Origin: Candidatus Helarchaeota ASGARD archaeon Hel_GB_B
GTDB lineage: Archaea; Asgardarchaeota; Lokiarchaeia; Helarchaeales; HEL-GB-B
Assembly: GCA_005191425.1 (NCBI GenBank)
Contig: SUPR01000001.1
Coordinates: 1 to 32,000, forward strand
Direction: 5' to 3'
DNA: 32,000 nt
The position numbers and the translations under genes are program-made. Below are positions 14,965-19,890 of the stretch, in pieces (within the stretch, counting starts at the first letter, position 1; every line of letters begins with the position of its first letter). Under the pieces are notes generated by a model that ran no database searches, had not been told where the DNA came from, and saw only the letters and a list, made by a program, of their open reading frames with translations.

Positions 14965-15753
14965 GTGAAAATTAAATTGAAAATCACTTTTCTTGGAACA
15001 ATTGGGTCCGCACTAAGTTCAACTTTAACATATTCTAGTATCCTTATAAATAATGACCTATTACTTGATTGCGGCGAAGGTACTACTCAAAAATTAATTT
15101 TACTTGACAAAATTGATACAATTAATACTATATGTATTACACACCTCCATAATGACCACTTTTTAGGAATATTCTCTCTATTATGGTATTATTGGATTAT
15201 TTCTCAAAGAACTAGACCATTAAAAATCATTGGGCCTCCACAGATAGATTACACGATTAGAACAATTTTAAAATTAATTAATACACCTTCAAATGCCTTA
15301 AAATTTGATTTGGACTTTATGGTCCTTAAAGATTCCAATAAATTTCAATTGGTCAATGTAAATGACTATATAATTACTGCTGCTAAAGTTGAACATATCC
15401 CAATTACTTTCGCGTATAAAGTTGAAGAAAAACTCTCAAATAAATCTCTTTGTTATACAGGTGATACAAGACCTGTTGAAAATATTATTAAATTGTCTTC
15501 AGGTTGTACATTATTAATTTGTGAAGCAACATTCCCGGACTCTTTAGCAGATTTCGCCCATAAATATTACCATTGCACACCATCAGATGCCGTAAAATTG
15601 GCAACTCAAGCTAATATAAGAAAACTTGCATTAACTCACATTTCAGCTGCATTCCATAATGAAAACATCTTGAAAAAAATTAAAGAACAATCTGAAAAGA
15701 AATTTATGAATGAAGTAATAATGGCAAAAGATTTGATGACATTAAACATTTAA
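14965..15753 (+). CDS. Metallo-beta-lactamase hydrolase, RNase Z/BN family
   Basis: TFLGT, LLDCGEG, THLHNDH (HxHxDH), YTGDTRP, CEATF, HCTP, LTHIS. No obvious flexible-arm exosite. Shares a TTAA stop overlap with the convergent UPF0147 gene. Confidence 0.8.
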   Translation: MKIKLKITFLGTIGSALSSTLTYSSILINNDLLLDCGEGTTQKLILLDKIDTINTICITHLHNDHFLGIFSLLWYYWIISQRTRPLKIIGPPQIDYTIRTILKLINTPSNALKFDLDFMVLKDSNKFQLVNVNDYIITAAKVEHIPITFAYKVEEKLSNKSLCYTGDTRPVENIIKLSSGCTLLICEATFPDSLADFAHKYYHCTPSDAVKLATQANIRKLALTHISAAFHNENILKKIKEQSEKKFMNEVIMAKDLMTLNI

Positions 15754-16067
15754 TCTTGAACTGTCTCTAATAACGATACAGTATTCCAAATTCTTGTTCT
15801 AGCATATAATGGACAATTTGGATCTTGTGAAATTTCGTCTAATATCGAAATAGCGTTTGATGCCTTATGAGCTGGTGTACCTTCACCTGATTTTAAAACA
15901 TTTATAGCTTCATCTGCTGCTCTACGTATATTTCTAGGTACCGAATTATCATTGCTTATTTGTGTTAATAATTGTATTATTTGTGCAATAATTTCTTCAG
16001 GGTCTTCTTCATCTTCATCCCATTCTTCTTCATCTTCATTCTCTTCTTCATCAGAATCCTGAGCCAT
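15750..16067 (-). CDS. UPF0147 family archaeal protein with acidic N-terminal extension
   Basis: DNSVPRNIRRAADEA, ASNAISILDEISQDPNCPLYARTRIW; N-terminal D/E-rich run. Confidence 0.9.
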   Translation of the reverse strand: MAQDSDEEENEDEEEWDEDEEDPEEIIAQIIQLLTQISNDNSVPRNIRRAADEAINVLKSGEGTPAHKASNAISILDEISQDPNCPLYARTRIWNTVSLLETVQD

Positions 16068-16403
16068 TTTTAATCACATCTCTTATGTTTTAAAATTTGG
16101 TTAAAATTAAGTTATTCTTTATTTTAATTTTATTTCCGTTTTTTTATTTGATTATTAAAAAAATATTTTTAATTATTGGTAAATAATTCAGTATTACTTT
16201 TAAAAATTTTTAAATTTATCTTTTTATTAATTTAAAACACATTTCTAAATTATATATTAATTAAATCTTTATTCTCCTCTAATTTTGCCCATAATTATAT
16301 TTCACCACGCCATTTATTCAAAGGTATTCTATTTATTATTATTATTTAAAATTGTTATTTAATCAAGTATTCCCAAGATAATATACAGATAATCTATGGA
16401 TTA

Positions 16404-16431
16404 ATGAAATATAATTTACCTTATATTTCAA
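16404..16431. other. dif-like tyrosine recombinase site: ATGAAATATAA-TTTACC-TTATATTTCAA
   Basis: Perfect 10-bp inverted arms (16405-16414 and 16421-16430) around a 6-bp asymmetric spacer, with the ATAA-N6-TTAT core of Xer/dif sites. It ends 28 bp before the start of the recombinase gene. Confidence 0.7.
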
Positions 16432-16459
16432 TAATAGCAATAATCCAAGCTGATTAAAA

Positions 16460-17515
16460 ATGATTGATACTTCAATGGTTTCATTAATCGATTCACCTGA
16501 AAATGAAAAAAAGCTGTCCAACAGTTCAATTAAACTAATTGACGAGTTCTTTGAATTTAATAGAAAACTTGGAAAGTCTGATTCATTGATTAGAAATTAT
16601 AGATATGATATTATGCATTTCGTTAATTCGTGTAATATTGAAAATATTGAAAATACGATTGTAGAAGATATTGAGGACTACATTGCAATTTTACGTGAAA
16701 GAAAGTGTTCAGGAGCTACTATTAACCGCAGATTGTGTGCTTTGAAAACTTTATTTAGATTTCTTAGACGTAAATACCACAGAACATTAAGACGTGAAAA
16801 ACGAAACCATAACAATCCTGATTTGCTAGACCAAATAAGATCATTAATTGAAGAATATGATGATATTTTAAATTTGGAATCTGTTCAATCTATTAAAAAA
16901 GAGAAATTACCATTCAATATGGAAGAAATAGCTGCAATGCTATCCGAAATTAAAAAGCCAGAAAATAACAGGTATTCAATGGAAGGAATTAGAAACTACC
17001 TAATAATAAAATTGAGCGCTGTTGGGACTGGTGCTAGAAACACAGCAATTAGACAACTTCTAATAAAAGACCTCTCTTGCTCAAAATGCGATGGAAATTG
17101 CGATAAATGCATCCCTACAATTAATATCCAAAGAAAAGGTAAAAAAGAATTCAATAGAACTAAAGTCAGGGTAAAAATTGAAAAAGAAACTTGTAAGGAA
17201 CTCAGAAATTACCTAAAAATGCTTAACTTTACTGATGTAAATCAACCTGTTTTCCTCTCTAGGAAAAAAAACTTTTTATCTATAGCTCAAATGAACCGAA
17301 TTTTACAGAAAGCAATGGAACTTGCAAATATAGACCCTAAGGGTAGAACATTTCACTCTCTTCGACATACCTTTATCACAGAATGTATTAAAAATGGGAC
17401 ACCTTGGGGACATATGATGATCCAAGTCGACCACAAAGCAAAACTGGGTATAACAGCAAAATATGAACACTTACAACCCGAAGACCTAATAATCAAGTTC
17501 CCTAAATTGCCTTGA
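16460..17515 (+). CDS. XerA/XerC-like tyrosine recombinase with a Cys-rich insertion
   Basis: N-terminal SAM-like domain (LIRNYRYDIMHF...SGATINRRLCALKTLFRFL). Catalytic R (TGARN), K (QRKGK), HxxR (HSLRH), H (VDH) and Y (TAKY) are all present. Confidence 0.9.
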   Translation: MIDTSMVSLIDSPENEKKLSNSSIKLIDEFFEFNRKLGKSDSLIRNYRYDIMHFVNSCNIENIENTIVEDIEDYIAILRERKCSGATINRRLCALKTLFRFLRRKYHRTLRREKRNHNNPDLLDQIRSLIEEYDDILNLESVQSIKKEKLPFNMEEIAAMLSEIKKPENNRYSMEGIRNYLIIKLSAVGTGARNTAIRQLLIKDLSCSKCDGNCDKCIPTINIQRKGKKEFNRTKVRVKIEKETCKELRNYLKMLNFTDVNQPVFLSRKKNFLSIAQMNRILQKAMELANIDPKGRTFHSLRHTFITECIKNGTPWGHMMIQVDHKAKLGITAKYEHLQPEDLIIKFPKLP

Positions 17516-17615
17516 TTATTTATACTTTTTAATTTTTCACTAAATTTTATCCTATTGAATTTTCCCCAATTTTTATAATTTTAGATTTTTATAATAAAAA
17601 CCTAATAAAATTAGA

Positions 17616-18581
17616 TTAATATAACTTCTCTAATTCAGTACCACATTTAGGACATCTATATCTTGCAGGTTTTGGGACTTTATATTGAACATTACAATAT
17701 CTACATATCATAGGATAACTCTTTTTTTCTTGTTGTTGTCTGGCTTGTTCTATGAGCTTATTACAATAGTCGATTTGCTCTTGTAACCAAGTCATTCCAT
17801 CTTCAAATTTGACTTTACTTGCATATTCATATGCTTGCTTAAATAGATTTAACGCTTCATGATGATCCCCAGATTGTAATCTGGATAACGCTACATTTGA
17901 AAGCTTTTTATAATTTTCCAATGCTTTTAAATATGCTTGCTGGTCAAATGATTCTTGAGCCTCTACAGTTTCTCCCTGTTGATTTGCTTGCGATACTTGC
18001 GTCTGAGTTTGCGTTGCTGTAGACGCTGTGCTACTTATTGTCGGCATGCCAATGTCTTCTCGCTCACCTATTAATAATTTAGTTAATGCATAAAATACCT
18101 CGTTTACACTTTGCCCTGATTTTGCAGATGATTCAATATAACTAACCCCTCTTTGGGCTGCAAACTCCCGCGCCTCTTCCACTGACACTTCACGATCTGG
18201 TAAGTCGGCCTTATTTCCCACTAATACCCACGGAATATTACTGCCACAATTTGTGAATACCTCATTGAACCATGTATTAGATAAACTCTCAAAACTCTTA
18301 CGATTCGTAATATCAAAAGCAAAGATCGCACCAGAAGCACCTTTATAGTAAAGTGGACGAATATAAGCGAACCTTTCCTGCCCACCAGTGTCCCATATTT
18401 GTAATTTGACTTTCTTTCCATTAATTTCAATTGTTTTTATTGAGAAATCTACCCCAATTGTCATTTTATATTGGTCTCTAAAAATTCCTTGCGCAAAACG
18501 GGTAGTTAATGCTGTCTTACCTACACCACCTGATCCGATCACAATTATCTTAAATAAATAGTCAAAATCTCCATTTGTCAT
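17616..18581 (-). CDS. Rab-like small GTPase with C-terminal helical (TPR-like) domain and Zn-ribbon
   Basis: G1 GSGGVGKT, RabF1 IGVDF, RabF2 KLQIW, G3 DTGGQE, YYKGA, G4 NKAD, G5 SAK; T/Q-rich linker; EALNLFKQAYEYA helices; CRYC...CPKC. Confidence 0.92.
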   Translation of the reverse strand: MTNGDFDYLFKIIVIGSGGVGKTALTTRFAQGIFRDQYKMTIGVDFSIKTIEINGKKVKLQIWDTGGQERFAYIRPLYYKGASGAIFAFDITNRKSFESLSNTWFNEVFTNCGSNIPWVLVGNKADLPDREVSVEEAREFAAQRGVSYIESSAKSGQSVNEVFYALTKLLIGEREDIGMPTISSTASTATQTQTQVSQANQQGETVEAQESFDQQAYLKALENYKKLSNVALSRLQSGDHHEALNLFKQAYEYASKVKFEDGMTWLQEQIDYCNKLIEQARQQQEKKSYPMICRYCNVQYKVPKPARYRCPKCGTELEKLY

Positions 18582-19185
18582 ACTGATTCACTCACAAGTT
18601 CTCAAATACTATATTTATGTTTGATAATTTTAATATTTAATCAGATTAATCAATTTTGATTTTATTATAATCAATTATAATTTAAAAGCTTTTTTTAATT
18701 TAAGAATAATTTTTTATTTGTCATAGAAATTACAAAAGTAAATATAATAAAAAATTACAAATAAGTGGGATTTTTTATTTACTAAATTTTTTCAACATGA
18801 ATTCTAGAACAACTTAACAAATCAAACTGCTTAAATTCTATTTTATTTATTATTTTGAAACCATTTAAAAAGATTTAAACCTAGATAGTTATATTTCCAT
18901 AAATGTTATGTCCATATAAATTTATTTTATAGATTTTAATTGAATTTATAATAATTAACTAATTTTAAAAAGAGATTAAATGGTTATTTCTTGACGAATT
19001 TTTTAATTACTTTGCTTATTTTTAATTTTGTTTGTTTGATTTTCCTTCGAAATAAAATGTTTTTCACTAAAATTTAGCATTTTGTTTGTTATTTTGTTAA
19101 ATATTTTTAATGATAATTTTATATTTTATATTGATGTTAATAATTATTAACTTAAATCGATGATTTAACTTTAGGCGGATAAAAA

Positions 19186-19890
19186 ATGTTCGAAATTGAT
19201 GATGTTTTAAATGAATACCATTTTGTAAAGCGATTGAATAAATATACAGGAATTATAAAAAAGGGTAAAAGTTCAGAAAAAGTTTACGTACCGAATCCAG
19301 GACGTCTAAAGAATTTATTAGTCCCCAACGCCCCTGTTTTTGTTAAAAAAACAGACAAGCCAAACAGAAAAACTCAATTTGATCTATTAGCGGTAAAAAA
19401 TAAAGAAGACATAATTGTGGGTATTGATTCCCGACTACCAAATTGGTTATTTGAGTTTCTTCTTAAAAATAATGAAATTGAAGAATTAAAAAACTATTCG
19501 ATAAAAAAGAAAGAATATAGAATAGGGAATTCACGTATTGATTATCTCCTTGAAAATAAGAAAAAAAAGTACTTGGTCGAATTAAAAATTTGTACTTTAG
19601 TCGAAAAAAGTACCTTATTATTCCCGGACGCAGTTTCAGCTAGGTCTACGAAGCATTTATTAGATTTAATTAAAATAAATAAACAAGAATACCAGATTAT
19701 AGTATATTTTCTAGGGCTTAGGTCTGACCCAACTAACTTTAGACCAAACTCAGAAGTAGACCCTAAATTTAGTGATGCTTTTAATTCGGCACTAAAAGAA
19801 TCCATTGATTTAATACCTGTTAAGTCCGATATAGAATATAAAAACAATAAACTTCTATTTTCTAATTTTGAGAAAATCCCTATAGCCTAA
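19186..19890 (+). CDS. sfsA: Sugar fermentation stimulation protein A (PD-(D/E)xK nuclease fold)
   Basis: RLNKY, VPNPGRLKNLL, RKTQFDL, SRIDYLL, VELKICTL, FPDAVSARSTKHL, FRPNSEVDPKF. Confidence 0.9.
   Translation: MFEIDDVLNEYHFVKRLNKYTGIIKKGKSSEKVYVPNPGRLKNLLVPNAPVFVKKTDKPNRKTQFDLLAVKNKEDIIVGIDSRLPNWLFEFLLKNNEIEELKNYSIKKKEYRIGNSRIDYLLENKKKKYLVELKICTLVEKSTLLFPDAVSARSTKHLLDLIKINKQEYQIIVYFLGLRSDPTNFRPNSEVDPKFSDAFNSALKESIDLIPVKSDIEYKNNKLLFSNFEKIPIA

Follow-up and report, generated by a model that had tools for sequence, protein, structure and literature searches.

The stretch of DNA analysed here (the window) comprises 32,000 nt, C93:1-32000 of the assembly G000 of a Candidatus Helarchaeota Asgard archaeon, which contains 3.54 Mb in 182 contigs with 28% GC and is 93.7% complete (~6% of the genome missing). 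It carries an open, intact 351-codon frame for an Xer-like tyrosine recombinase, preceded by a palindromic “dif-like” site (Table 1). The first-pass annotation had described a 28-bp site of the 11-6-11 form ending 28 bp before the ATG of an intact recombinase gene, and reading of the sequence confirmed this description. The inner 10 bp of the arms are fully complementary, and the dyad grows to 15 bp per arm if one mismatch is allowed. The centres of the half-sites lie 17 bp apart, a spacing which would suit a C-clamp recombinase more than a dimer of the helix-turn-helix type.

Table 1. Location of the module components in the window and of the additional site copies in related genomes
Feature	Location	Strand	Sequence or content	Remarks
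Conserved left flank	16377-16403	.	three GATAAT-like repeats 11 nt apart: GATAATAT, GATAATCT, GATTAATG	
dif-like 28-bp core, 11-6-11	16404-16431	.	ATGAAATATAA-TTTACC-TTATATTTCAA	sequence read, conserved arms
Left arm	16404-16414		ATGAAATATAA	
Spacer	16415-16420		TTTACC	
Right arm	16421-16431		TTATATTTCAA	
Gap between site and ATG	16432-16459			28 nt
Xer-like tyrosine recombinase (P0001)	16460-17515	+	351 aa	Pfam, NCBIfam, structure model
Codons of the Cys4 insert	17078-17110	+	CxxCxxxCxxC (C207, C210, C214, C217)	invariant in 20 family members
Site copy in G005	G005:C10:14772		TGAAATATAA-TCCAAT-TTATATTTCA	0 mismatches; 38 nt after tRNA-Arg(TCG), in a tRNA cluster
Site copy in G005	G005:C5:688128		CAATGTAATATAA-GATGAA-TTATATTACATTG	perfect 13-bp-arm palindrome; between convergent genes
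Site copy in G001	G001:C135 (L023:9475-9500)			1 mismatch; at a synteny breakpoint versus G000
Site copy in G001	G001:C430			2 mismatches; after glmS

The genes around the site follow the order TrmB-like / ATP-grasp / MBL hydrolase / UPF0147 / site / recombinase / Ras-like GTPase, which is kept in four other species (five together with the window). This conserved synteny upholds the initial view of the locus as chromosomal and non-viral. The domain annotation, together with a tRNA search which found no tRNA genes in the window, agrees with the housekeeping-type flanks free of tRNA or viral cargo that had been noticed at first. Rfam gave nothing relevant in the region 15500-19300, and a sigma-70 promoter scan was set aside as not meaningful for an archaeon.

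The recombinase matches the Pfam families PF00589 (Phage_integrase, the catalytic domain) and PF02899 and PF13495 (the SAM-like N-terminal domain). Among the NCBIfam models XerA_Arch ranks first, followed by XerD, XerC, and XerS, all matched far under their cut-offs. The score on XerA_Arch (NF040815) is 82.1 bits against a cut-off of 220 bits (79 bits in a six-frame genome search), which is why we do not assign the protein as an XerA orthologue; the canonical XerA proteins of the class relatives reach 231-243 bits on the same model. The XerS model (NF003462) gives 42 bits against a cut-off of 267 bits, and the protein is not an XerS orthologue. The sole PDB sequence match is XerA of T. acidophilum, and the best Foldseek matches of the AlphaFold2 model (pLDDT 79) are the archaeal XerA structures 5HXY and 4A8E, followed by Cre and XerH. 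Residues R193, K226/K228, H299, R302, H325, and Y335 are invariant among 20 homologues, and the protein possesses the two-domain organisation and the R-K-H-R-H/W-Y catalytic set. The true start may be Met6 (16475), because the homologues begin with MV... at the position aligned to it.

A characteristic trait of this protein is the Cys4 insert between the catalytic Arg-I and the Lys beta-hairpin, which is the family signature and probably represents a Zn-binding knuckle. Even among the distant members (35-37% identity), three of its cysteines (C210, C214, and C217) reach a conservation of at least 90%. A search with the family profile found nine matches at E<=1e-30 among 1.84 billion cluster representatives, and scans of genome and metagenome contigs gave few additional loci. 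Close homologues occur only in metagenome bins of Ca. Helarchaeota/Helarchaeales, where identity declines from 75% to 45% and then falls to 26%. Among the distant members, P0042 and P0043 (L117:700-3921) are ~1000 aa long and continue beyond the recombinase into an extended C-terminal part that bears a treble-clef zinc finger (DUF4379); no dif-like site was seen upstream of the more distant members at L117 and L118. The most divergent core member, P0032 (L043:1-7029; 45% identity), retains the Cys4 and is surrounded by small unknown ORFs and an HNH endonuclease, a virus- or plasmid-like context which may point to mobile elements as the source of the family. An in-frame TAA interrupts the orthologue (L025/L028, G001:C287:1467-2540) of the GTDB representative genome for the sister species; the contig has a coverage of 3.6x, and further assemblies of that species carry the gene intact (P0004, L031). 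Either an assembly error or strain variation probably explains this TAA.

A search of the source genome for other copies of the 28-mer, as the first-pass annotation had advised, showed that the site is unique in the assembly. No second match within <=3 mismatches was found in the window, and the next closest match in the 3.54 Mb assembly has 6 mismatches. When only the arms and a 6-bp spacer were required, one further match at <=2 mismatches appeared in G000, C104:32233 (2 mismatches), which we take as chance as it lies inside an ATP-grasp coding sequence; the reversed control pattern gave 0 matches at <=2 mismatches in the same search. A second site in G000 is possible, since the assembly consists of 182 contigs and ~6% of the genome is missing.

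The palindrome alone is weak evidence because such repeats are common in a genome of 28% GC: 250 inverted repeats of the 11-6-11 form with <=1 mismatch were counted in G000, and we rejected the palindrome count as an argument. Inspected by eye, none of the repeats listed (those other than ~100 with an all-A/T left arm) contained another ATATAA-N6-TTATAT core. Identity to the dif of P. abyssi was likewise rejected as a genome-wide discriminator, 24 sites in the AT-rich G000 reaching 20/28.

It is the conservation upstream of the orthologues that makes the site more than a chance palindrome. Seven loci of the closer clade (family f1), from different species with a protein identity of 66-75%, have the site ahead of the recombinase gene, its first arm base lying 55-66 nt before the annotated start. 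Conservation of the site together with the gene, proposed earlier as a check, was thus found in related genomes. Compared in pairs, these loci agree at 91.6% of the arm positions and at 26.2% of the spacer positions, the latter corresponding to the random level: the window has TTTACC, and the other spacers are CAGCCA (L035), CTATGG (L036), CGACCA (L037), TTGAGG (L038), TGTTGG (L028/L031, one species), and TTCGTC (L032). Alignment of ~400 nt of intergenic DNA from six regions revealed a sole conserved island, composed of the arms and ~27 nt on their left, the remainder being diverged. The left flank may act as an accessory region or as an additional half-site; AT-rich conserved flanks surround the Thermococcales dif sites as well (PMC2958812).

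A strain-variant contig from a vent metagenome differs from the window at 33 of 1386 positions, of which 0 fall within 16404-16431 and 8 within the 47 nt of 16437-16483, and it spans the site without rearrangement. Separately, in contigs from two vent-metagenome runs 112 nt of the AT-rich DNA preceding the site are skipped (window 16218-16331); these joints are short-sided and come from high-depth contigs, and perhaps belong to another organism or a repeat.

The recombinase is the only Xer-like gene in G000, where PF00589 is found in two genes, the second being a remote integrase on C95. The initial description of the gene as an intact Xer-like one is supported as well. In the 34 genomes of the class relatives (families f4/f5) XerA was matched in 34/34 and above the cut-off in 31/34 (G025, G035, and G039 having below-cut-off or split matches), and the Cys4 family was not found; family f2 of the Helarchaeales has XerA above the cut-off in 2/3 genomes, and the Cys4 family was not found there either. 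In the four genomes of the Helarchaeales families f1 and f3 no XerA scores above the cut-off, and the Cys4 family is present in 4/4. Therefore, within Helarchaeales and their class relatives the Cys4 recombinase and canonical XerA show a complementary distribution, in a small sample of genomes which are related and not independent. This is the pattern that a replacement of XerA would predict. The PF00589 count, the synteny, and the distribution together identify the gene as the sole chromosomal, vertically kept Xer of the genome.

Among the closest known counterparts of this module are the archaeal XerA/dif systems of P. abyssi, T. kodakarensis, and T. acidophilum, with which it shares a single homomeric Xer-type recombinase, a 28-bp site of the 11-6-11 form, the TATAA-N6-TTATA core, and AT-rich conserved flanks; the closest structures and the closest family model of the protein are also those of archaeal XerA. 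The P. abyssi dif whose binding and recombination were assayed reads ATTGGATATAA-TCGGCC-TTATATCTAAA (PMC2958812), and the ChIP-validated dif of T. kodakarensis is TTTTGATATAA-TGTACC-TTATATGACAA (PMC11840125). The window site is identical to them at 20/28 and 21/28 positions, respectively, and the two share 20/28 with each other. The most conserved feature of archaeal dif is TAA-N6-8-TTA inside an imperfect inverted repeat (PMC11840125), and the window site has this core, the two 11-bp inverted arms, and a centre within the 6-8-bp range (PMC11840125, PMC2958812). The archaeal dif architecture and core given in the first-pass annotation, including the ATATAA-N6-TTATAT named for Thermococcales, are indeed those of the published sites. 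The spacer ending in CC, which had been counted as a further likeness, is a coincidence: orthologous sites have unrelated spacers, so the resemblance of TTTACC to TGTACC carries no meaning. The differences from archaeal XerA are also pronounced: the helarchaeal protein is ~60 aa longer, with the Cys4 insert and a long helical linker, and has VDH...KYEH where XerA has LGH...RIYA. In addition, the Thermococcales dif is located far from xerA, whereas the helarchaeal site is 28 nt from the gene.

The location of the gene next to its site had been compared with XerS/difSL of streptococci and lactococci, in which one divergent recombinase replaced the standard Xer of the lineage and the gene adjoins the site (PMC1914069, PMC5357621). 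This comparison stands for the layout and fails for the components, since the proteins are not homologous at the family level, as the XerS score given above indicates, and difSL is 31 bp long with an asymmetric 11-bp centre, in contrast to the 28-bp helarchaeal site with its symmetric arms and 6-bp spacer. XerS also depends on FtsK. To our knowledge, FtsK is absent from archaea. The XerH/difH system of Helicobacter and Campylobacter is alike in having a single recombinase and a near-palindromic site, and XerH is among the top structural matches; however, XerH is bacterial, FtsK-linked, and without the Cys4 insert, and difH is not gene-adjacent as a rule.

Linkage of the gene to the site has precedents in archaea as well. 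A dif-like inverted repeat is located directly upstream of the xerA operon in Haloferax volcanii and Halobacterium salinarum (PMC11840125), and a xerA/dif module in some archaea is mentioned in a review (PMC5357621). The haloarchaea possess a canonical XerA in euryarchaeal operons, while here we deal with a divergent Cys4 protein in an Asgard lineage without canonical XerA. Hence gene-adjacent dif is already known from XerS/difSL and from haloarchaea, and what is new is the Cys4 lineage variant in an Asgard archaeon. A full-text literature search for Asgard together with Xer/dif returned nothing beyond passing mention.

We suggest, with a probability of roughly 60%, that the locus is a chromosomal Xer-type module of Helarchaeota, in which a divergent Cys4 recombinase acts in place of XerA and the upstream palindrome represents its cognate dif-type site. 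One recombinase monomer would bind each 11-bp arm, two sister copies of the site would synapse as a tetramer, and strand cleavage and exchange would take place where the arms meet the 6-bp spacer. This exchange would resolve chromosome dimers, which is the function of dif. Occupancy of the site probably also represses transcription of the recombinase gene itself; we propose this autorepression because the right arm is TATA-box-like and lies 39-54 nt before the start codon. The operator role and the dif role of the site may coexist. The upstream element also follows the recombinase gene itself, for in family f3, where the gene order is different, the right half-site is still found 36-37 nt ahead of the ATG. 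A point against this interpretation is that a dif is expected once per replicon, and the relatives G001 and G005 possess additional well-matching intergenic copies (Table 1).

The main alternative is that the site is only an operator or promoter element bound by the recombinase or by another regulator, the dif being elsewhere or in unassembled DNA, and we consider it rather unlikely. It draws on the TATA-box-like right arm (TTATATTT), which in families f1 and f3 alike precedes the start codon by 36-56 nt, on the ~6% of G000 that is missing, and on the sister family f3. In L039 and L044 of this family the element is reduced to this promoter-proximal half-site (TTATATTTCA, 36-37 nt before the ATG), and an 11-13-11 palindrome with related arms is found further upstream; the G005 copy upstream of the gene is degenerate and has a 7-bp spacer (ATGAAATAACA-GATCTGG-TTATATTTCAT), and the perfect 11-6-11 copies of this genome are located elsewhere. 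No site was seen upstream of the gene in L040, L042, and G003, and G003 had no match at <=2 mismatches, no site within 3 kb of the gene, and none after its tRNA relative. Since the f3 element is degenerate or a half-site only, it looks regulatory, and the real dif of this family is possibly elsewhere. A precedent is provided by T. acidophilum, which, in the work of Jo 2017 as it is cited in PMC11840125, has two XerA-binding sites of which one recombines, dif1 being bound by XerA and yet no recombination substrate.

Nevertheless, the seven f1-clade loci retain the two arms at precisely 6 bp from each other, which would be needless for a TATA box alone. In G001 the distance from the site to the start codon has grown by ~70 nt and the site is intact, which means that it is not merely a promoter element acting at a fixed distance. 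In the relatives, the well-matching copies are found behind a tRNA or between convergent genes rather than in promoters; there is no other site in 3.54 Mb of G000, and the extra sites are not common to G000 and G001, which speaks against a regulon. Our reading of these data is that the arms are the putative recognition sequence of the Cys4 recombinase and that the gene-proximal copy is probably regulatory throughout, while in family f1, where this copy is a perfect 11-6-11 palindrome and the sole one in G000, it would also be the recombination site. Accordingly, the description of the module as “self-contained” suits family f1 and should be dropped for f3, with only a half-site upstream of the gene, and in view of the extra 11-6-11 copies of the relatives.

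These extra copies (Table 1) underlie the second alternative, in which the sites serve chromosomal rearrangement (programmed or occasional), capture and exchange of DNA modules from one dif-like site to another, or SMC unloading or boundary marking like the bacterial XDS, and not dimer resolution. G000 (93.7% complete, 182 contigs) has one site, and G001 and G005 have several good copies. The copy on G001:C135 joins a left flank orthologous to C142 of G000 and a right flank (with a glycyl-radical enzyme) orthologous to C116, and no site was found in the G000 regions orthologous to the extra-site regions of G001, C142 and C116 included. The contigs of G001 end 200-650 nt from two of the copies, the 45%-identical family member has a mobile-element-like context, and euryarchaeal chromosomes are known to have dif-associated boundaries (PMC11840125). 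However, the spacers of the copies differ (TCCAAT, GATGAA, CAACGA, TCCGTC, and TGTTGG), which would prevent productive exchange among them, G000 has only one copy, and no joints at the site were found in the metagenome contigs aligned over it. The lone synteny breakpoint may be a coincidence in fast-shuffling genomes, and on balance we regard this alternative as improbable.

A dif is expected in the region of replication termination or at an inversion of the skew, and the position of the copies was compared with the base composition of the chromosome. GC skew and 3-5-mer skew along G005:C5 (1.2 Mb analysed of 1.4 Mb) were noisy and did not inflect at 688 kb or at 823 kb, and the only recurring change-point, at ~120-130 kb, is unrelated to the sites. 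The G000 contig carrying the site is 72 kb long. In archaea, dif need not lie opposite the origin (PMC2958812). The G005 copy on C10 belongs to a 1.2-kb intergenic tRNA cluster (L020:9859-10860), some tRNAs of which are apparently intron-bearing and were missed by ARAGORN.

The earlier suggestion of a minimal integrated element, i.e. a remnant in which an integrase gene is accompanied by the attP-like site on which it acts, can appeal to the integrase-family protein with its adjoining site and to P0032 among small ORFs and an HNH nuclease, but it is contradicted by the gene order kept on both sides in the four further species, by the lack of a second att-like copy, a tRNA target, or cargo genes in the window, and by the invariable presence of the gene in all four f1/f3 genomes as their only Xer-like gene, and is therefore highly improbable.

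Under the preferred interpretation, a Cys4 recombinase with its cognate dif-type site, a part of one Asgard order appears to have its housekeeping XerA replaced by a divergent Cys4 enzyme, which parallels the replacement of XerCD by XerS and XerH in some bacteria. No new kind of system is revealed by this. Chromosome dimer resolution has been worked out in few euryarchaea and in Sulfolobus, and the Asgard archaea are the closest prokaryotic relatives of eukaryotes. The locus offers a concrete Asgard candidate, composed of a 351-aa protein, a 28-bp site, and natural spacer variants in the sister species; as a landmark, the site can also help in the orientation and closure of Helarchaeales genomes. 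A speculative and rather doubtful scenario is that a zinc-knuckle recombinase, perhaps from a mobile element, displaced XerA in a part of Helarchaeales and brought a gene-linked dif with it, the site having since multiplied and moved in the relatives. If this were true, the Xer system may also drive rearrangement of Asgard chromosomes or exchange of DNA modules, and the Cys4 would place recombination under metal or redox control.

A different arrangement was observed near the canonical xerA in several Lokiarchaeia genera. A dif-like inverted repeat, TTAAGTTTAA-ACTTTC-TTATACTTAA, is located 80-160 nt 3' of the xerA stop codon (L050:1214-1239, L056:1366-1391, L051:2467-2492, and L052:2437-2462), and G012 and G013 each contain a single copy of it at 0 mismatches. 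Linkage of Xer and dif may be general in the class, with the site on the opposite side of the gene in the case of canonical XerA.
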